Source of the DNA: Eledone cirrhosa
Taxonomy: Eukaryota
Assembly: GCA_964016885.1 (NCBI GenBank)
Contig: OZ024740.1
Span: forward strand, 424,638,001-424,702,000
DNA length: 64,000 nt
Reading direction: 5' to 3'
Each line of letters opens with the position of its first letter. The first letter of the stretch is position 1. This document shows positions 11,668 to 39,694 of this stretch, one piece after another. The translations under genes and the position numbers were made by a program. The notes beneath the pieces are model-generated. The model had not been told where the DNA came from, made no database searches, and saw nothing but the letters and a program-made list of their open reading frames with translations.

Positions 11668-11948
11668 TCAGTCAATCATATCGGTGGCCTCCCCACAGCC
11701 CCGGAAGACGGCAAGGGAGACGCGCTGGAAAAGCCATTCCAACTCGCGAGGCTCACACCTGCAGTTGGCCAGCTCAGCGCCTATAGTGGTGAGTAGGGAG
11801 GTAGCCCTAAAACCGAGGATACCAGAAGTCTCCACTGCCAAGGGTACGACCGCGAACCTGTCGGAGAGTGACCGGTATTTGAAGAGTTTGGTGTCCTCAG
11901 CCCGACGTGCAGCAGAACCTGGGTTAGTCGCAGACTGCACCAGGTTGC
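11668..11948 (-). pseudogene. CRE-clade non-LTR retrotransposon restriction-like endonuclease fragment
   Basis: Translation PGSAARRAEDTKLFKYRSL..FAVVPLAVETSGILG..WLFQRVSLAVFRG fits the C-terminal RLE region of CRE-type elements. Confidence 0.75.
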
Positions 11949-27409: not shown

Positions 27410-28108
27410 TGCCATCCAGTGCAGCCTGACCTCAGACAGGCTCACGTGCCAGCTCGACCAGCACCGCCTTGCCTGTTTTCGCGCGGCCTCCAAACCCCAC
27501 AGTGGTGCCTAGCTCCATGCCTTGCCATCCTTCTTCACTGGCACGCGGCTGGATAACGATATCCTGCGCATCTGCGGATCTGCGAGCCACATAAATGTCA
27601 CTGTGGATCCACCGTGGACTCTTTCGGATTCCACCCGCTTTCTTGTCGCCACAGTGCCGGCTGCCTTCCGCGCCATGTTGCCCTCAACGAGGTCATTAAG
27701 CATGGCTTGGACCAGCTCGAGCCGGTGGCGCTGGACCAAGGTGATGGCAAAAGGCCAGACAGTATGACCATCTTCCCGTTCCGCGGTGGCAAACTCCTCG
27801 TCTGGGATGCCACTTGCAGCGACACTTTCTTCAGCTGCAACTTGGTGCAGTCTGCGGCTAACCCAGTTTCTGCTGCACGTCGGGCTGGGGAGCCAAACTC
27901 TTCAAATACCGGTCGCTCTCCGACAGGTTCGCTGTCGTACAGTTGGCAGTAGAGACTTCTGGTGTCATTTGGCCGTAGGGCTACCTCCCTATTTACCTCC
28001 ATAGGCGCTGAGCTTGCCAGCCGCAGGTGTGAGCCTCGCGAGTTGGAATGGCTCTTCCAGCGCATCTCCCTTACCATCTTCCGGGGAAACGCCTTCTCTA
28101 TTCTGTCC
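27410..28108 (+). pseudogene. CRE-clade non-LTR element 3' fragment (zinc knuckle remnant plus RLE endonuclease), frameshifted
   Basis: FGFHPLSC..RHVALNEVIK..EP..DGKRPDSMTIFPFRGGKLLVWDATCSDTF..ETSG..WLFQRISLTIFRGNA. Confidence 0.8.
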
Positions 28109-28357
28109 GTCGGTTCATTTATTGGCCGACATATAGGGGACAATACAAAAGACTGGGACAGTGGGGTTTTACAGAAAAATCGAGTAAACAATATGAATCA
28201 GAATAACAAAGTAACAATAAAATTACAACAAGAAAACATTCTACAATAGGGGGAATGACCACCCAGGGTTCGCCCTGGTACCCCACCAATCCTGAACGAC
28301 CCGACGCTTCGAGAGCACTCTGGAAGAGCACCCCCTCTCCTCCTCAAATTTACCTAC

Positions 28358-31315
28358 CTACAGCCGCATAAACAGAGTAGGCCCACTCAGACGGGCCATT
28401 CTCGGCACATTCATCCACCATTCAGCAAATGTACTGGGGGAGCACTTCTCTCTCCACCCTCACCTTCCTTTCCAAGTGAAACTTGAAAAAGTTGATGAGG
28501 GATTGCCGAAGAGAAAAGTGTCTGTCTTCAGTCCTTTCAACCTCTAATCGACCACTAATCCTCTATAGAACTCGAGAGTGGAAGTGCCACTGACCGCATT
28601 CCCGCCTGGTAGAGGGCAGTGAGTGCCTGGCAACATTCCAGATGCCAGTCACCCAGTCTCGGTCTGTCTTGACCCAGGACTGCAGCTCAGTCAAAGAAAC
28701 GAGCTGCGGAAAGGCCCGTCTGACAAACGGCGACCACACCTGTTCACCATTTAGGCAGAATATCTAGAGATGACGCAGCCTCAGCGCGTGCCTGCGTATC
28801 ATTAGCCACGGCATGCCCAGCCCTCCACGTAGAGGGTGCTGGCAGCAGATGGACCGCCTCACCAGCGGAACCTGACCCCTCCACAAGAATTTGAAGAGGA
28901 GCCGCTCCAAGATGGCGAGGCGCGAACGGGGGCAAAAGACGACGGTCAGACGGTAGTAGATGACGGACGCGATGTACGCGTTCACCACCTCCGCCCGACC
29001 TTTCAGTGATAGCTTCATCCCAGCCCATTTCTGGGTGAGACTGGCTACCCTGCCCGTCACCTCGTCCCAATTCTTATCCACCTGGAGGTCTGGCTCGAAC
29101 CAAACCCCGAGCAACTTTACCGGTCCGTCCGTCCAGCGCCTAACGACGCTGTTGGACGGCATGGCTTTGCCTCTCTAGGTGCCGAGTTGCAAGCCCACCG
29201 ACTTTTCCGGGTTAAGTTTTGCTCCCGTCAACCTTCCATATTCCTCCAATAAGTTACCGACGACCTCGATTTCAGAGGTGTCCGACACCATCACGGTGAT
29301 GTCGTCCGCATAAGCCGACACAGCCTTTCCGCGTCCCGGTTGGAGCGGGATGCCCTGCAACAGCTCCAGCTTCCGCAGTAAAGGCTCGAGAGTCAATACG
29401 TACAGAAGGGAAGAGAGAGGGCACCTTTGACACACCGATCGGGAGACCTGAAACGGTTCCGAGAGGTGGCCATTTTGACCATCGAGCAGGTGCCGCTGTG
29501 CATTGCAGCGATCCAGCTTCTGAAGACGGGGCCGAAGCCAGCCGCCTTGAGGACAGCTTCCAGGTACCGATGGTCGACCCTATCGAATGCTTTCGATCGA
29601 TCTAAATTGATCAGAGCCCCACCGAAACCAGGTTTACACCCTACCCTCTCTATGATGTATCGCATTAGATGGTGGTTGTCGTGTATGGACCTGGTTGGGA
29701 TTGCGCAAGTTTGCGCCAACCTCTTCACTAACACCCTGGTCAAAATCTTAAACTCTGTGTTGAGCAGAGTTATGGGCCTGAAATTGTCTAATGTGTCCTT
29801 CTTGTTCTCGTCTTTCCTTATCAGCGTCACTACGCCCCGGCTCACAGAACTGGGAATACTCCCGTTTTGCTGCCAGTTTCAGTAGAAGGCTTCGAGGAGA
29901 TTGGAGAACAAGTCTGGCATATTTACGTAAAGCTCGTAGGGCAGACCATCCAAACCGGGTGACTTGCGCCTCATGCAGCCGACAAGGGCATCCTGAATCT
30001 CGGCTGAAGTAATTGGCCTTTCGCAGCGCCCAGCGTCAGCCGTCGAGATTTGCAGCAAGCCATCGAGGTAGGGACTGAAGTCCGCCACCATCTCTGACCG
30101 GCCACTTCCCCCGAGCAACCGAACAAAATGTTGGCGAAAGGCCTCACACATCCGCTTGGAATCGCTCAGCTCGTGTCCGTCTCGGTCCGTCAAAGTCCGA
30201 ATCGTGGTTTTATTACCACGCTGCGCCTCTGCCACGCGGGCCCATCGAACAGCTTTGGTTCCGTCGTTTCTCAGAGCACGCGCCTTAGCTCTGACAATGC
30301 AACCTTCGAGTTTCGCATTGAAGAAATGGTCTAATGCCATTCTCGCCGCTAACCAATAGTCTCGTCTAACTTACCTACCAACTTCCCCTCCTTTCTATTT
30401 TTCTCTAACGCTACTTCTTTGCTAAACTCTATCGAAGTTACTCTAATCTCTCTTTTGAGAGCCCCCCCCCCCCCACCATCTATTGTTGACGACTCCCCCT
30501 GTCAACTTTTTCTTAACTAAATTGTTGACCTGGTCCCTGAAAGCCTTACGTGCCGGAAATGACATGTTTAGCTTCCAGTAACCAGGTACTAACCTACGCG
30601 TCTTATCTAGGTCGACCATACAGATCACAAACTTGTGATCTGAATAGGCGACCGTTTCAAAACGTGGACAGCTTACACTATTTCTGTCTATTTTCCTAAT
30701 GAATATCCTGTCTATATACGATCTAGATGACCTTATGCGGTTAGCCCAGGTCCACACAGGCGCATTAGGGAAATCTAGTCGGTACCTGTCAGACAGTTGG
30801 AACTGGCTGATCAGGTTCTTGAGGCTTTTGCACCCCCCGCTCCTATCGGATACTCCCACACAGTCCCAGCGTGCGTCTAAGATGCCGTTCCAGTCCTCTG
30901 CTAACAGTAAAAGGCGAGACGTACCCAGAAAGGCTTCCAGGCGTCTAAAGAAGTCCGGCCGTCCTGCCCCAGTAGGAGCATAGACGGCCACCAGTCTAAA
31001 GGCACCACCTTCGTTATTGTTCACGTCCAGGACCACCAACTTCCCGTCCGGGTCCCGGAAGATCGACCTTACCTCGAGATCCAGGCCTTTCCTAAACAGC
31101 ACTTCCACCCCGCCTCCCATTCCCGGCCGGCTAACAGATGCAAAGATCTGATAGTCGTTGAAAATGGGGGCTAGTGCGCGCGTGTCGGAAATCCTGGTCT
31201 CGCTGACGGCAATTACATCCATTTCTAGAGACCTGAGGTCGTTGAGCAGGTGACCCTGCTTCCAGGAATATCCCAGGCCTTGAACATTTAAACATCCTAC
31301 TCTTAATACGGCCAT
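28358..31315 (-). pseudogene. Tx1 ORF2 pseudogene (APE endonuclease plus RT), frameshifted, C-terminal zinc finger deleted
   Basis: GCLNVQGL, SETR, SYIDR, SDHK, KSPGLDG, FRPITLLN, KAFDRV and YADD across ORFs 30443-31315, 29879-30340, 29393-29845, 29175-29435 and 28764-29162; ends RMARLSGPTLFMRL*. Confidence 0.9.
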
Positions 31316-31347
31316 GTTGGCAGGTTGAAAAGAGAGAGAGGAAAGGT

Positions 31348-33280
31348 CTACTTACCTTCCGGTCTCTTGTGAAGGTCGGGTTGTTCGACCTCCATAGTTG
31401 GTGGGCTTTCTTTTGGGAACCCCTTTAAAAGTCTTCGAGTGGGTTTTACGTTCGGGGTTCCCACCTCCCGAGGAAAGCTGTCTCGTATTTCTTTGAATAT
31501 GTCCAGCGACATTCGCACCAGAACCGAATCTTCCAGCACGCGAAATGTGCTCGATTTAAACATTTCCCCCTCTTTTTGTATATTTTCACTTCGTGCTACG
31601 AGGACCATCAGTTCCTTGTTGGCCCTCCTGACGAGAACGAAGTTTTGTATGTTTTGTTGGTGTGATTTTATTTGTTTGCGTAGCTGTGGTGGTGATGGTT
31701 TTGGTGGTGTTGTTTCGGTTGTGTCTGTGTTTGTTGTGAGTGCGGTGTCTGTGGTTTCAGATGTTTGTGTGTATATTTGTTCTTGCGTCTGTTTAGGTTG
31801 TTTGCGTTTCGGGGATTATGGTGATGGTGATGGTGATGGTGGTGTTGATGTTGGTGTTATTGGAGAGATGTTTGCGTGGGTGGTGTCTGAGTTTTTTTAT
31901 TGTGGGTGATTTTGTGCTTTGTTGAGTTTTTTTTTTTCTTTTTGTGTTTCCTCTTTTGGGATTTTGGGGGATTTTGGTTTTCCCTCATCTTCACTACTGG
32001 TAGATGAGGGGTCTGTGTCTGTAAGTCTGTCTGTATGTATATTTATGGTTTTATTGGTGTGTATATTTTTGCGGGGAGGGGGAATTTGACAGCTTTCCTC
32101 ATTTCCCCCCTGGGTGGTCAATGTTGGTGGTGGTCTTCTATTGGTGTTGTTGTTGGTGGTTTTGCCGGTGCTGGTGTTGGTTGTGGTCCTCGCCCCGGCG
32201 TCGGCAGCAGTGGAGCCTTTCGACCCCTTGCCTCTTTCAGCAGTTGAGGGCAGAAGGCTCGCAAATGGGTTTTTTCCCCACAAACAAAACACTGCGGCCT
32301 TTTGCCTTTGGTCATATTGTGAATGACCGTCTCATTCTGAAGGCGGATGTGGTCCGGGATTGTCTTCACATTCTCGGGCCTGATCTGGAGAAGGATCTCC
32401 AGGTCAACCCCGGACCAATTCTCTCTGGCCGTTCTGGTCACTTCTATAGGGACGGTATCCGTCCCTTCCACAATCACACATCCCAGAAGCCACCACATGT
32501 CAAGTCCTGGTGGGATTCTGGGAATGCGGAGACGGGCCGTCATTTTCCCATGTGGGAGGGGTACATTAAGACGTTGCTGGTTTTGCAAGGAGTCATAGCG
32601 TGTTTCATAGCGAGGGCTTCTGACTTGAACAACACCGAAATGGTGCCGTACTGTCTGCCCCTCTCTATGTATTCGGTGTTTTCTCTGATGAACCTCAGCG
32701 CGACTTCGACATCTTCTTGTGGGATTAAAGCTGCCCTTTTGGTTTTTGCTGAGATGCATCTATAATGCACCGTTCTGCGCTCCACTGCCTCAATAGCTTC
32801 TACCGGGACAGTTAAGTTGGCCCAGGTTTCCTCTTGCTTGGGCCAACTTTTCTCTGTTTGAGAGGTCCATGTTGAAGCATGGCCTCTTTTTTGCTGCTGC
32901 CGCAGCGAAAGTGTTCTTCTTGTTTTCGTTGGGGGTGTTGTTGTCGTTGTCGTTGTTCTTGTTGGTGTTGTTATCACTGTCGCTGTTATCATTGTTGTCT
33001 TTGTTGTCACCGTTGTTCTCGGTGCAGTTGGTATTGTTGCTGTTGGTGTTGTCGCTATTAGTTTTCATGTTAGTGTTGTTGATATTGTTGTTGCATTTGT
33101 CATTTTTTTTTTGTTATCTGTATTTTCGTTGTCGCTGTTACTGTCATTTTTTTCAAAACTAGAGTTCTCATTGGTATCATTGGTGTCTTTGTTTACCTTG
33201 TTTGTGGTGGTGTTTGTGTTATCAATGGGTGTTAATTTCGCTGTAGCGCTCCTCTCAACTTCTACGTCGTTGTGGCACAA
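31348..33280 (-). pseudogene. Tx1 ORF1 (gag-like) pseudogene
   Basis: Asn/Thr-rich N-terminus, CCHC knuckle, Pro/Thr-rich tail; several frameshifts. Confidence 0.75.
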
Positions 33281-33895
33281 CAGCAGACATATCGGGGGGT
33301 GCTCAGCTTTTTTTTTTCTCCGTAAATTTTAAAAAATGTAATAAAAGTTCAAATATTTGGGCCAAAAGGCCCAAATATTATACTTTCCCCTTCACGGGGC
33401 AAAGTCTAAGGGCTTATATCCCTTACACAACAAGAAATATTTAACAACAAATAATTTAAACAGGCAAGTGAAGCGACTTACTGGGAGCCAGCAAAATACG
33501 TCCGATTAGACCAATAATAATAATAATAATATAATGATATAGATATATATAGATACACAATTATATAGAGAGATTATATATACATACACAATGATATAGA
33601 TATATATAATGATACAGATAGATAGATATATATACATACACAATGATATAGATATAGATATATATAATGATATAGATAGATTTCTTTATTTACCATAAAG
33701 GCATAAAAAGAAGGGACAAATACAAAGGGGGAGTTTACATATAATCGAGTAAAAAGGGTGTAACATGAAAATAATCGAAAATAACCTCAAAAGGGAGGGG
33801 ACGTGATGGGGGTTGCACACACCCCCGAAAAAGTGTGCAATCCTTTGCCCGGGGAGCACATGGAGAAGGTGTTCCCCTCTCCTTTACTTCTTTAC

Positions 33896-36800
33896 CTACA
33901 GGATGGTATACAGAGAAGGCCCATTTACACGAGCCATTCTCGCCACTATCACCCACCTTTCATAAAACTGCCTGTGGCCAAGCACCTCTCTCTCCATTCT
34001 TATCCTTCTTCCGAAGTGATATCGGAAGAAGTAGACCAGACTATGGCCAGAGAGGAAGTTGCCTGACCTCAGACCTTTCAATCGTGTCCACCAAACAACC
34101 TCTTTCAACATGGCTATTACGCACAGAAAAACCGCCTTTGCTTCCTTTGTGAAGAGGGGAGGCGGTTTGATTGTCATCACGGACTCGGCGGTCAATTTAA
34201 TCGGCGCCACCCGCGACAGCAGTTGTTCGGCGTAGCCCCACAGATCAGCCACGCCCGGACATTGCACCAATGCGTGCGCCACGGTTTCTTCGTGACGCAC
34301 GCATCTAGGGCAAATCTTTTTTGAGGGATCCCTGCCCGGGCGCCCGTGTCTGTAGAGCCTCTCTCGAACGGGTAGAGCCCCTCGGTAGCACTGCCAGGCC
34401 AGTGACTTCTGGAAGTTGTCCATTGGTCCTGGGCCGAAAGTCCTACCGAACAGGCTGGCCAGTTCGTCTTCTTCCATGTCCAGCGACTCTCCAAGGGTGT
34501 CATCGCCCCTGCTAGCCACCAGCCCTCTATAGAATGATGAGGTGGATTCTCCACCGATGGCCCGGCCCGCTTGCCAGAGAGCCCTGAGCGCCTGAGCACA
34601 CTCAGTGTGCCAGTCTCCCAGTTTTCCGGATCTTTGCTTGACCCAGGACTGTAGCTCGGTGAGTGAGACGAGTCTCGGAAAGGCTCGTTTCACGAACGGA
34701 GCCCACACCGGTTGACCAGTGAGGAATACCTGTAGGTGCCGTAGCCTTAATGCGTGCCTACGCATCATCAACCACGGCATCCCCAGCCCTCCTTTCGAAG
34801 GTTGTTGGCAGCAGATGGATCTTCTCACCATAGGAGGACGCTTCTTCCAAAGAAATTGGAAGAGCATGCGTTCCATGGTGGTGAGTGTTTCCTTAGGGCA
34901 AGGCACGACAGTCAGGCGGTAGTAAGTGACGGACGCTATGTAAATGTTCGCCACCTCCGCCCGGCCTTTTAGGGACAGCTTACACTTGGCCCATTTCTGG
35001 GTTAGTGCAAACACCTTGTTCGTAACCTCGTTCCAGTTCTTTTCCACCTGGAGGTCCGGTCCAAACCAGACCCCAAGCAACTTTACCGGGCCCTCCGTCC
35101 AGTGTCCGACGACACCGTCAGGAGGCATCGGTTTGCCTCTCCACGTTCCGAGTTGCAGCCCGATGGATTTTTCCCGGTTCAGTTTCGCTCCTGACAACCT
35201 TTCGTACTCCTCCAGTAAGGTACCGATCGCCTCGATCTCCGAGTCGGTTGATACCATTACTGTTACGTCATCGGCGTAGGCCGACACCGCTTTGCTCAAT
35301 CCTGGTTCCAGGGGGATACCCTGCAACAACTCCAACTTCCTCAGTAAAGGCTCGAGAGTCAATACGTACAGAAGGGAGGAGAGAGGGCACCCCTGTCGAA
35401 TGGATCGTGTGATTTCGAACGGCTTCGAAAGGTAGCCGTTCACCTTGATCCTAGAACAGATGTGGTTGCTATGTAGGGCAGTGATCCAGCCTCTGAAAAC
35501 AGGACCGAATCCAGCCGCCGCTAGCACCGCATCCAGGTAACCATGGTCGACCCTATCGAAGGCCTTAGACTGATCCAAGTTGATCAGGGCCCCACCGAAG
35601 CCGGGTTTGTTGCCAACCCTCTCTATGATGTATCGCATGAGGTGGAGGTTATCGTGAATGGACCTGGATGGGATAGCACATGTCTGCGCATCTCCCACCA
35701 GGCCACCCACGACAAGCGCCAACCTCTTTGCTAACACCTTGGCCAAAATCTTTAACTCTGTGTTTAGCAGGGTTATGGGCCGAAAATTATTTATACTATC
35801 CCCCTTGTTCTCGTCCTTCCTCACCAGCGTGACTACGCCCTTGGCTACAGAACAAGGAATTCTCCCGTTCTGCTGCCAATTGCAGTAGACCGCTTCGAGG
35901 AGTTCGGAGAAGAAGACCGGCATTGCTAAATAAAGTTCGTAAGGTATACCATCGAGACCTGGAGATTTGCGTCTGCTGCATTGGCTCAGCGCATCTCCGA
36001 TCTCATCAGCCGAGATTGGTCCCTCGCAGGACTCTGCCTCTTTGTTCGAGAGACGCGGCAGGCCGTCGAGGTATGGACCGAAATCCACGCCCCGGCCCGG
36101 ACCCTCGCCTCCCCCGAACAATCGGGCAAAGTGCTTTTGAAAGGCCTCGCACATCTGCTTAGGCTCCCGGATCACTCGTCCATCTTCGTCTTGCAACGAC
36201 CGGATGGTGGATCGATTTCCACTTTTAGCTTCTGTCACGCGGGCCCATCCAACGGCTTTGGCCCCCTCATTACCTAGAGCACGTATTTTACTTCGAATGA
36301 CGCAGCCTTCATGCTTTGCATCGAAAAACTGGTTCAAGGCCGTCCTCGATGCCAGCACTCTGGCCACATCTTCGCTCTTGATTGCCTCTTCTAATTTACC
36401 TGTTAATTCTTTCTCGTTTCTATTCCTATTGGCAGCTAACATCTTGCTATAACTTATTGATTCTGTTCTAATCTCTCTTTTGAGAGATGCCCACCATCGG
36501 TTGTTGACGATTGCACCCGTCAACCTCTCCTTAACTAATCTGCTAATCCGGTTTCTGTAAGTCTCTTTTGCCGGTAAAGACAAATTAAGTTTCCAGTAAC
36601 CGGGACCCTGTCTATGTGTTTTCTCGAGATTGACCACGCAGGTCACTAATTTGTGATCCGTGTAGCCAACCGTGCGCATTTCTGGACAGCTTAATATGTC
36701 CCTATCCTTACTTCTAACTAAGAATCTATCTAAGTACGATCTAGATTGACCACTGTGGTTTCTCCAAGTCCAGGTAGGCACAGTTGGAAAATCTAGTCGA

Positions 36801-37333
36801 TATCTATCGACCAAGTTAAAACGGTCGAGTAACCCCTTGAGGCTGTTACACCCCCCTCTATTAGGACATGCTCCTGCATAGTCCCAACGTGCATCTAGGA
36901 TGTCATTCCAATCCCCCGCTAGAAGCAGGGAACGCGACGTTCCCAGAAAAGTCTCCAAACGCTGGAAGAAGTCGGGCCGTTCAGCTCCGAAAGGGGAGTA
37001 GACGGCGACCAGTCTCAAGGCCGCACTTTCACTACTGCCAACGTCTAGCACCAACAAACGACCCTCCGGGTCCGAGTGCACAACCTGTACGGCAAGACCC
37101 AGGTGTTTTTGCAGTAGCACGACAACCCCACCCCCACCTCCAGGTTGACAGAGAGATGCATGCACCTCAAAGTCATCGAAGGTGGGGGCCAGCTGCCGCA
37201 TGACGCTGATTCGAGTCTCACAGATAACCATTACATTTATACTACATGACCTGAGGTCATTTAGAAGCTTTGCTTGCTTCCAAGTTGAGCCCAGGCCACG
37301 TGCATTCAAACATCCTACTCTTAACACATCCAT
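33896..37333 (-). CDS. LINE ORF2: apurinic-like endonuclease, reverse transcriptase, C-terminal CCHC finger (1145 aa, intact)
   Basis: GCLNARGL, ICETR, LAGDWN, SYLDRF, TDHK; KSPGLDG, FRPITLLN, LDQSKAFDRV, IRQGCPLS, YADD, KLLGV; CPRC..ETVAHALVQC. Confidence 0.97.
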   Translation of the reverse strand: MDVLRVGCLNARGLGSTWKQAKLLNDLRSCSINVMVICETRISVMRQLAPTFDDFEVHASLCQPGGGGGVVVLLQKHLGLAVQVVHSDPEGRLLVLDVGSSESAALRLVAVYSPFGAERPDFFQRLETFLGTSRSLLLAGDWNDILDARWDYAGACPNRGGCNSLKGLLDRFNLVDRYRLDFPTVPTWTWRNHSGQSRSYLDRFLVRSKDRDILSCPEMRTVGYTDHKLVTCVVNLEKTHRQGPGYWKLNLSLPAKETYRNRISRLVKERLTGAIVNNRWWASLKREIRTESISYSKMLAANRNRNEKELTGKLEEAIKSEDVARVLASRTALNQFFDAKHEGCVIRSKIRALGNEGAKAVGWARVTEAKSGNRSTIRSLQDEDGRVIREPKQMCEAFQKHFARLFGGGEGPGRGVDFGPYLDGLPRLSNKEAESCEGPISADEIGDALSQCSRRKSPGLDGIPYELYLAMPVFFSELLEAVYCNWQQNGRIPCSVAKGVVTLVRKDENKGDSINNFRPITLLNTELKILAKVLAKRLALVVGGLVGDAQTCAIPSRSIHDNLHLMRYIIERVGNKPGFGGALINLDQSKAFDRVDHGYLDAVLAAAGFGPVFRGWITALHSNHICSRIKVNGYLSKPFEITRSIRQGCPLSSLLYVLTLEPLLRKLELLQGIPLEPGLSKAVSAYADDVTVMVSTDSEIEAIGTLLEEYERLSGAKLNREKSIGLQLGTWRGKPMPPDGVVGHWTEGPVKLLGVWFGPDLQVEKNWNEVTNKVFALTQKWAKCKLSLKGRAEVANIYIASVTYYRLTVVPCPKETLTTMERMLFQFLWKKRPPMVRRSICCQQPSKGGLGMPWLMMRRHALRLRHLQVFLTGQPVWAPFVKRAFPRLVSLTELQSWVKQRSGKLGDWHTECAQALRALWQAGRAIGGESTSSFYRGLVASRGDDTLGESLDMEEDELASLFGRTFGPGPMDNFQKSLAWQCYRGALPVRERLYRHGRPGRDPSKKICPRCVRHEETVAHALVQCPGVADLWGYAEQLLSRVAPIKLTAESVMTIKPPPLFTKEAKAVFLCVIAMLKEVVWWTRLKGLRSGNFLSGHSLVYFFRYHFGRRIRMEREVLGHRQFYERWVIVARMARVNGPSLYTIL

Positions 37334-37366
37334 GTGGGCGGCAGAGCCAAAGGAGAGTGTAGAGAC

Positions 37367-39247
37367 CTACCTTTCCGCTTCCCGGGGTTCGGGTTGCACG
37401 ACTTCCATGGGGTCGGGGGTGTTGGGTGAAGGGGTGTCTTGTGGTGGTGTGGGGTCGTCGGTGTGTGGTGGGGTTGGGGTGTTTGGAGTTGTGTTGGGGA
37501 GGGGAAGGGGAGGGGGAAAGCTTTTTAGTAGGACGCGGTTTATGGGTTTGACAGAGGGTGGTCCTACGTCCTCCTTAAAATCCTTTTTTAGTTTTTGGTA
37601 GAGGTTCATTGGGATTTTTATTAGTTTTAAATGTGGGTGGTTTTCTGATGAAACAAAGTTTACACCTTCGGTTTGTACCGAAGGATTATTGTATATGAGT
37701 TCATTTAATTTATTATTGTTTCTGTTGATGTAAGTATAGTGTAATGTCTTTTTTTCCGATGGTGTGAGTGTTTCGAAGAGGGGAGGGGCAGGTTTGGTTT
37801 TGTTTGTTGCTGGAGGGGTGTTTTCTGTTTTGTTAGATTGTGTTGCGATTTGGGTGGGGGTTGTTTGTCCTTGTGTGTTTTGCACATGTTTTCTTTTTTT
37901 TCCTTTTAATCTGTCTGAAGGACTCCGTTTCTTCCTCCGAATTCGTTGGGTTATCTTCAGTGTTGGAGGGAAGAGGTATGTTTGCTGGTAATGTTTCCGT
38001 GTTGGTTTTCTTTGTGGGGGAGATGGATGTCACTATGTTAGACTGTGTTGTGTGTTGTGTCTGCGGTGGTTGTGTTGTTTTATTGAGTGAGAGGTTGGGT
38101 GGGCCTGTATTTTGTTTTGGGGTAATGTGTTGTGACTGTTTGTGTTGTGGTGGTGTTGTGGTGTTACTGAGGGACGGGTTGGGTGGGACTGAGTTTTGTT
38201 GTTTGTTTATCTGTTGTGGTGGTGGTGGTGGAGCTGGTGTTGGTAGCAGGGTTTTCTTTTTGTTGAGTTGGGGACAAGCGGCCTTCAGGTGCCCTCTGCC
38301 TGCACAGATATGGCAGGACGGCCTTCTCCCCTCCACGCTAATGTTTATATACCCGTGGTCCTCTAATAGGATTCTGTCGGGTATTTGGGCGATGCGTTCA
38401 GGCTTCATTTGTACTACCAGCTCTATACCTGTTCCACTGAACGCATTGCCTGTGGTTTTCCCAATGGAAATCACGTTGTCATTCACTGGATCGATGAAGC
38501 CAGCTATGAGCCAGCAGTAGTCCACATCTGGCATCATTGCATCCAGCCATATGCGTTGAGTTTTTTTCCCCATATAAGATGGATAAAAGGTGAAATTTTT
38601 CGAACGAATCGGTGACAAAGCACATTTTTTTGCCGCCGATTCGTTCTTCATGATAATTGCTAGGCTTCCATACAGTCTGTCTTTTCTTATGAAAGTTGTT
38701 TCATTCAGTACTTCTGCGAGTACTGTTTTGATATCTGCTTGAGAAGGCTGTTCAGGTTTTTTGTACTGTTGTTGATGGTCCGAAACTTGACCGTTCGGCT
38801 TTCAATGTCTTTCGTGAATTCTTGAGGCATTTTTACCAATAAAATACCATTCTCACCTTCACTTATGTATTGTTTTGCGTCCGTGATCCTTCGTACCACA
38901 TCTGAAATGTTTTCCGCTATATAAGTCAAAGATTTCTTTGTTTTCTGTGCAAAAGAAATCTTGTCGTCTGCTTTGTTTTCTGATATTATGTTATTTTCAA
39001 CTGTTATTTTTTTGTTTGTTGTGTCTTTGTTTGTGTTATTAGTATTGTCATGCAATTTTTCAAATTTTTTTTTTCCGTTGTTTTCGTCATTTAATTTTTT
39101 TTCCTCCGCAGATTCGTCCGTTTTTATTTTCATTTTTCCTTCCTTCTCTATGACGTTAGTTGGGAAGGAAGGGAGGACTAAAGCGTGCGAGCTTACAACT
39201 CTTACCGCTGTCCCCCCACCACTATTTTCGTTCGCTGCGTTTAACAT
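37367..39247 (-). pseudogene. Tx1 ORF1 (gag-like, CCHC knuckle), split by two apparent frameshifts
   Basis: ORFs 38705-39247, 37833-38651 (CHICAGRGHLKAAC) and 37367-37885. Confidence 0.8.
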
Positions 39248-39694
39248 TTCTGTTAGACGATTGAAATTTTTTACACAAAATTTTTTAAAACAGGTTTTTC
39301 ACCTCTAGGAGGGGTAAAGATGAGCTGACCCACCGCCTGACAGTTCAGACGGAGGGTCAAGCTACACAATTGTATCAAAATTAAGTTTGAACTCACAAAA
39401 TTTCCTCAATAAATTTGAACAAAACTTCTGTGCGAAGTGAATGACATCCACACTGTAGAACAGACGACAGCTAGATTCTATAATGATATAGATAGATAGA
39501 TAGATATACATACACAATGATATAGATATAGATATATATAATGATATATATAATGATATATATATTTATTAAAATATATATATATATAATCTGTTATTTT
39601 CATAAATATTTGCTCTACGGTTCTTATATATGTGATATATATTTATCCTTATCGAGCCCTCTTTGGATATATATATATACATATATACATACAC

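Follow-up and report, generated by a model that had tools for sequence, protein, structure and literature searches.

A stretch of 64,000 nt of Eledone cirrhosa DNA (GCA_964016885.1, OZ024740.1:424,638,001-424,702,000; hereafter the window) carries element 2, a full-length long interspersed element (LINE) of 5798 nt with two open reading frames (ORFs) (33681..39478, ends set by its target duplication), and just downstream of it element 1, a decayed related LINE (approximate ends 28120..33290; 70% nucleotide identity to element 2 over most of ORF2). Positions are window coordinates, and all features of the two elements lie on the minus strand. Judged from the sequence, the 5' splice-site motif (donor) at the ORF1 end is real, beyond chance. 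Taken with an acceptor-like site at the ORF2 stop and a predicted RNA duplex (zipper) between the two ends of ORF2, it suggests, at even confidence, that zipper-gated splicing would yield an ORF1-only mRNA. A wider proposal is put forward tentatively, at somewhat under even confidence: a whole animal LINE lineage may use its reverse transcriptase (RT) gene as a regulated intron, the zipper clamping both splice sites and the ORF2 start, so that one fold would choose between genomic/ORF2 RNA and ORF1-only mRNA, with alternative donors after each ORF.

The donor of element 2 was located at AAG|GTAGGT (37365..37373, phase 2), and the reading of the first-pass annotation was reproduced to the base: ORF1 closes on GCG GAA AG|G TAG, its donor G being 37370. 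Donors were scored against MAG|GTRAGT, the 5' splice-site consensus. On the minus strand, 16 of 3426 GT sites came within one mismatch of it, four of them in element 2, the ORF1-end donor included; the sole perfect match was the ORF1 end of element 1 (AAG|GTAAGT, 31350..31358; G at 31355, phase 1). The ORF1 stop falls at intron position +2 in element 2 and +6 in element 1; since the phase differs as well (2 vs 1), the motif is not a by-product of the stop codon. A profile scan of genome contigs gave a sister clade (about 40% ORF2 identity; 16 contigs analysed) in which AAG|GTAAGT stands at 65/65 main-type ORF1 ends, directly 3' of the ORF1 stop, while the flanking bases vary; three extra anchor matches were unrelated sequence, and the copies, being close kin, were taken as one lineage. 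In distant L1/Tx1-like LINEs (45 distinct long ORF2s from 80 loci) a donor within 30 nt of the ORF1 stop was found in 0/36 loci with an identifiable ORF1. Two full-length ORF1 relatives (24-28%) have the C termini QGK* and EGKS*, which is what a phase-1 donor would specify (protein only; 2 of 93 proteins checked, mostly fragments).

ORF2 of element 2 ends, as the first-pass annotation had it, in a pyrimidine-rich tract followed by TAG|GTAAAG. The acceptor-like tract (33896..33919) closes with the ORF2 stop TAG, 33896 being the putative last intron base; by pyrimidine content (16/20) it ranked first among the 97 YAGs between ORF2 start and element end, and no other YAG came up to it in pyrimidine count and also in the length of its AG-free zone (41 nt). 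Joined at 37371/33895, ORF1 would end EAER*, closed by the TAA at 33892..33894 and identical to the unspliced ORF1 end, so that this earlier statement also held; the predicted intron is 3475 nt and the predicted spliced RNA about 2.3 kb. In element 1, an acceptor-like tract ending in TAG at the ORF2-stop position (28358..28381; rank 4/105 YAGs) would give PEGR*. The predicted joins of both window elements thus meet a stop within two codons despite their unlike phase; with three alternative acceptors the joined frame stayed open for at least 33 codons. Three further variants among contig loose ends finish CTGTAG|G or TAG|GT. Of the features of a U2 intron, a U1-type GT donor and a polypyrimidine tract with YAG were found in element 2, and in element 1 at the rank given. 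As a sequence feature the acceptor is less secure than the donor, and its reading is ambiguous.

The predicted zipper of element 2 (56 pairs, -69 kcal/mol) joins a 5' arm (37314..37386) made of the ORF1 end, donor, spacer, ORF2 ATG and first codons to a 3' arm (33848..33919) made of the last ORF2 codons, TAG|G and the start of the 3' untranslated region (UTR). The middle of the 5' arm is the inter-ORF spacer (37334..37364; pyrimidine-rich, 23/30; Kozak-like end). In element 1 the predicted arms are 31296..31367 and 28312..28381 (56 pairs, -70.9 kcal/mol). In each element this wider-arm duplex covers part of the donor, the spacer, the ORF2 AUG, the pyrimidine tract and the stop G. With 60-nt arms the energies were -45.5 (element 2) and -49.2 kcal/mol (element 1), 0/200 shuffles being as low in either; when the arms were exchanged between the elements, pairing was weaker (-38.5 and -31.4 kcal/mol). 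The best-pairing window (about 186 scanned) lay at the ORF2 end in element 1 and 5/5 sister variants vs 1/38 controls, and the zipper of element 1 outdid all 8 of its controls once local folding was allowed to compete. In sister copies the register has moved into the final 70 coding bases, and stop-centred windows gave no signal there. Of 59 sister pairs compared over 14 variants, 42 are invariant, 2 compensatory (both sides change) and 10 one-sided; cognate arms gave a mean of -72.5 vs -70.0 for swapped arms. In subclade L081 the stop region was outside the top four with the 60-nt scan, but came 1st of 373 windows with a short core.

A second donor-like GTRAGT was found 14-40 nt past the ORF2 stop in 60/60 sister copies and in L081 (controls, 0/45 in a 60-nt search). 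The sister 3' UTRs hold acceptors ranking among the top 1-3 of about 130 YAGs in 5/5 loci, at about +184 to +264; ACCTAG is invariant in 60/60 copies, and a second YAG was matched in 54/60. Given this second donor and the top-ranked 3' UTR acceptors, the splice architecture is taken as a feature of the lineage. Textbook-looking 3' UTR introns (L081:4496-4640, 145 nt; L086:8476-8726), with a long pyrimidine tract and a YAG, are present unspliced in every genomic copy inspected. L081 (3 copies) has a TAATG stop-start overlap, an ORF2 ending in TAA, and no junction donor. The P-G, V-G and A-G ends of sister ORF2 proteins were considered as acceptors and dropped, as L081, the sole such locus read, has its best acceptor in the 3' UTR.

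From the motifs, their conservation, the complementarity of the arms and the joined frames we infer the following course. The donor would be exposed and bound by U1 while the 3.4-kb ORF2 was still being transcribed. The 3' arm would then emerge, and closure of the duplex in cells would compete with recognition of the acceptor, since both splice sites, like the ORF2 AUG, would lie within the duplex. Zipped RNA would be kept unspliced as genomic template and ORF2 message; where the zipper had not closed, the acceptor would be used, giving ORF1-only mRNA with its stop near the junction. The spliced 2.3-kb RNA would raise ORF1p relative to ORF2p. For the sister clade the model would have this donor joined to 3' UTR acceptors instead.

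Several results weigh against this course, the acceptor being the part most affected. In the predicted element 2 duplex 20 of the last 24 putative intron positions are paired; the letters of the acceptor tract pair in the duplex, and therefore they could be conserved without any splicing. In element 1 the 4 additional nt are paired too, which weakens the argument from phase compensation, and the acceptor ranks are inflated because the 3' UTRs are T-rich. By eye no clear branch point was found, with no YTRAY in the 45 nt inspected. The sister stop-site acceptor ranks 52-54 of about 130 YAGs, and the sister ORF2 stop is TAG in 54/60 and TCG in 6/60 copies. Conservation of GT and AG in relatives, to which the first-pass annotation had looked, accordingly held at the donor (65/65) and failed at the stop-site AG. 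The zipper of element 2 is the weakest: it came 2nd of 177 windows and, with short arms, missed the top five, and the energy it gained relative to local folding (-13.4) was in the range of its 9 controls (-8.8 to -18.8). Moreover, 9/59 sister pairs are broken in some variant, and in L081 the zipper core is present though the junction donor is absent.

The search for spliced products likewise gave nothing in favour of splicing. Contigs of unrecorded kind from 4 of 6 listed sequencing runs were checked for joints, and the joint 33895/37371 was not found among 15 of 171 joints listed; contigs of runs X1 and X5 span the acceptor unspliced. No loose ends were found at 37320-37430 in 3 runs, a search that is insensitive, since partly matching records are left out of it. 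No ORF2-less unit was found among 65 sister units or 3 L081-type units, which weakens the earlier suggestion that splicing could spawn ORF2-less non-autonomous copies. LINE proteins favour their own RNA, and the missing ORF2-less units for this reason lower the non-autonomous-copy claim more than the mRNA claim. Two apparent signals were rejected. ORF1 was covered more deeply than ORF2 in X1, but depth gives no valid ranking in these data, and divergent subfamily contigs overlap there. A contig that stops at 37368 resembled a splice branch; it is better explained by a single-base variant at 37367, given a 61-nt bubble and another contig that stops at 37366. The X1 contig breaks suggest that this variant, at donor position +4 and the last base of the ORF1 stop, is a minor one. 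As a separate lead at protein level, P0196 is a 603-aa ORF1 whose last residues are QGK*; its contig, of 2209 nt, is close in length to the predicted 2.3-kb spliced mRNA. On balance, the first-pass reading of ORF2 as one intron stood in so far as the donor is kept as nucleotides while the stop position shifts and the joins stop at once; it was weakened in that the acceptor letters are largely explained by the duplex and the stop-site AG is variable.

In the main rival reading, possible if rather unlikely, ORF2 would be left unspliced and the zipper would control its translation, either by hiding the AUG until ribosomes open the duplex or by holding the stop beside the start; the donor would then be a non-splicing U1 site guarding against cryptic poly(A) cleavage in the A-rich ORF1, and the acceptor a by-product of pairing. 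L081, which combines a zipper and the TAATG stop-start without a junction donor, fits this, as do the pairing of the acceptor letters with the Kozak-like context and first ORF2 codons and the lack of ORF2-less units. The hexamers AATAAA/ATTAAA also cluster in ORF1 upstream of the donor (element 2: 7 in ORF1, the closest 252 nt upstream of the donor, vs 1 in ORF2; L086: a like skew toward ORF1, with zero in ORF2), and for Arabidopsis EVD, U1 is described as repressing premature termination (PMC5580714, available text). Translational control leaves unexplained the second donor and strong acceptors of the sister 3' UTR, and also that the joined frame is closed at once in either window element; pairing, furthermore, tolerates compensatory change, yet CTGTAG|G is kept in all five octopus-type ends seen.

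The TAG|GT at the ORF2 stop might instead be a second donor; each ORF would then be followed by a U1 site, the 3' UTR would contain a short intron that is retained, and ORF1-only RNA, if made, would draw on an acceptor further along the 3' UTR. The sister GTRAGT (60/60 and L081) with its acceptor-like sites at about +184 to +264 would agree with this, and element 1 has TAG|GTAGGT at the ORF2 stop and another pyrimidine-rich TAG at 28241. We consider it improbable, as TAG|GTAAAG of element 2 is a poor donor, its 3' UTR (33681..33895; AATAAA at 33690) is YAG-free with GAG at the aligned site (33786), ORF1 of element 1 joined to 28241 meets no stop over about 39 codons, and other ends among the contig loose ends do not preserve GTRAGT. 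That the motifs are chance, or functionless by-products of stop-codon or protein context, is very improbable and for the donor largely refuted already: element 2 does hold three other one-mismatch donor-like sites (conserved ERWV codons account for one) and related copies are non-independent observations, but the donor persists while frame and stop distance change across lineages about 40% alike in ORF2, and the controls gave 0/36 (donor) and 1/38 (zipper).

Splicing gated by the zipper, the favoured reading, bears on an open question, namely how LINEs with two ORFs produce ORF1p in large excess over ORF2p and preserve their RNA, to which the usual answer is inefficient reinitiation. If true, the conserved donor and the ORF2-spanning duplex would be a second solution, paralleling copia in an element without long terminal repeats (non-LTR); ORF1 or 3' reads in octopus tissue would then not imply RT expression, a point that matters for claims that LINEs are expressed there. 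Should splicing be absent, a covarying duplex linking ORF2 start and end would still be a conserved control element, one not found described in the literature searched. Long-range pairing that hides a polymerase start codon until translation opens it is known from phage MS2 as the Min Jou interaction; MS2 differs in being a bacterial RNA phage, with the partner upstream in the coat gene and no splice sites involved.

In Ty1/Copia elements (Drosophila copia; Arabidopsis EVD, BARE1) a structural-protein-only mRNA with a stop just past the junction is made by splicing, the copia intron being about 3 kb (PMC5580714, available text). The predicted structural-protein-only mRNA with its stop right after the join is alike, and in copia/EVD U1 also guards the full-length RNA. 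Copia and EVD differ from element 2 in being LTR elements whose splice is demonstrated and whose gag and pol share one frame; here the element is non-LTR with two ORFs, the whole ORF2 is the putative intron, a duplex is predicted over both sites, and the splice is a prediction only. Human L1 likewise has splice sites inside its RNA; they are functional, and spliced L1 RNAs are retrotransposable. In the portion of PMC5860796 available, however, the splicing (SpIREs) is within the 5' UTR or from 5' UTR to ORF1, harms the element and is called a dead end, and removal of ORF2 is not described. HAL1 (half-L1) is an ORF1-only L1-type derivative, but as given in the accessible part of PMC2241872 it is a genomic deletion family, while here ORF2-less units numbered 0/65. 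In SART1, RNA structure near the ORF1/ORF2 junction affects ORF2 initiation, and L081 shares the TAATG overlap; the SART1 structure, as far as the passages of PMC3894237 go, lies downstream of the junction, whereas here the ORF2 end, 3.4 kb distant, supplies the partner strand. Vertebrate L1 spacers, when surveyed, showed no common structure (PMC5381506, in part). Splicing is unmentioned in the main text, so far as available, of two octopus papers (PMC13282606 and PMC9115989). A literature search, its coverage ending short of subscription journals and Repbase reports and many sources being partial text, gave neither a LINE whose ORF2 is spliced out as an intron nor a duplex spanning ORF2.

Element 2 belongs with the L1-group non-LTR elements: ORF2 carries APE endonuclease, RT and zinc-binding domains, a knuckle is found in the separate ORF1, and a target duplication is present without terminal repeats (no LTR by self-BLAST). 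ORF2 (33896..37333, ATG to stop) is intact; between stops its frame is open over 1156 aa (37366 to 33896), with the ATG at 37333, and it matched PF03372 (Exo_endo_phos), PF00078 (RVT_1) and, slightly below cut-off, PF13966 (zf-RVT). Its best relative with a solved structure is human L1 ORF2p (E 1.5e-50) and its closest named relative is from Argonauta hians (63%). ORF1 (37367..39247, including the stop TAG 37369-37367) shows a CCHC-like knuckle, C-x2-C-x4-H-x4-C, and a C-terminal FxxDVG domain; in this copy it is split over three frames by two frameshifts, and indels near 38756 and 37894-37902 were seen in contigs of runs X1 and X2. The Pfam search of ORF1 gave zero matches; its relatives came from Octopus sinensis, O. 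vulgaris, O. bimaculoides and Argonauta, and the closest Atlas clusters of a relative were CCHC proteins (weak score). ORF1 word searches returned either nothing or self only, a single-protein search of genome contigs gave no match, no relative turned up in viral contigs, and Rfam gave zero matches in the window and in 7 sister loci.

The label "Tx1 LINE" of the first-pass annotation was upheld as resemblance, Xenopus TX1 outscoring human L1 ORF2p with ORF2 (327 vs 175 bits), and not as a grouping: in a quick tree (58 rows, without Keno, Kibi, Koshi or vertebrate L1 reference rows) a 15-row lineage was supported at 100 and did not group with Xenopus Tx1, the backbone to P0106 being without resolution. 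With Tx1L, Keno, Kibi and Koshi the element shares two ORFs, APE-RT and simple-repeat insertion; in the quick tree it falls in its own supported clade, and splicing is unmentioned for them in the available text of PMC4494074. The insertion observed is one intact case, element 2 in a TA/TCTA tract, in a 64-kb window where TA microsatellites are abundant. The 18-nt target-site duplication (5' copy 39479..39496, inside the TA/TCTA-rich tandem tract; 3' copy 33663..33680) has exactly two occurrences in the window, at the two ends of the element.

The sister LINEs (L126-L160) lie on repeat-rich, apparently eukaryotic contigs inside one bacterial assembly (G001), likely host contamination. They form head-to-tail arrays of full-length units of about 6.4-6.9 kb, up to 10 per row and of a single polarity per array, resembling telomeric retrotransposon arrays; two 5'-truncated units were found on sister contig C9. 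In L082-L117 the ORF2 stop sits in a 4-nt hairpin loop on a 6-bp stem; one subfamily has the loop TTCG and an ORF2 6 codons longer. In L113, L109, L103 and L099 a donor-like CG|GTAAG is found inside an inverted repeat about 800-950 nt past the ORF2 stop, in the 5' region of the next unit; the repeat would mask it, a T-rich CAG acceptor follows, and the site may mark a gated 5' UTR intron.

In the 5' UTR of element 2 a hairpin, TTGACCC...GGGTCAG (39325-39365), has a weak GTGAGT on one side (39396) and a pyrimidine-rich TAG on the other (near 39305); comparable inverted repeats were seen in sister 5' UTRs. A GC-rich repeat adjoins the end of element 1 (27837-28086), recurs at 11699-11948 with 88% identity and was possibly the target of element 1. 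Elsewhere in the window, tandem arrays were found at 44295-45066 (units of about 79 nt, 99% alike) and 46171-46803 (units of about 70 nt, 90% alike).

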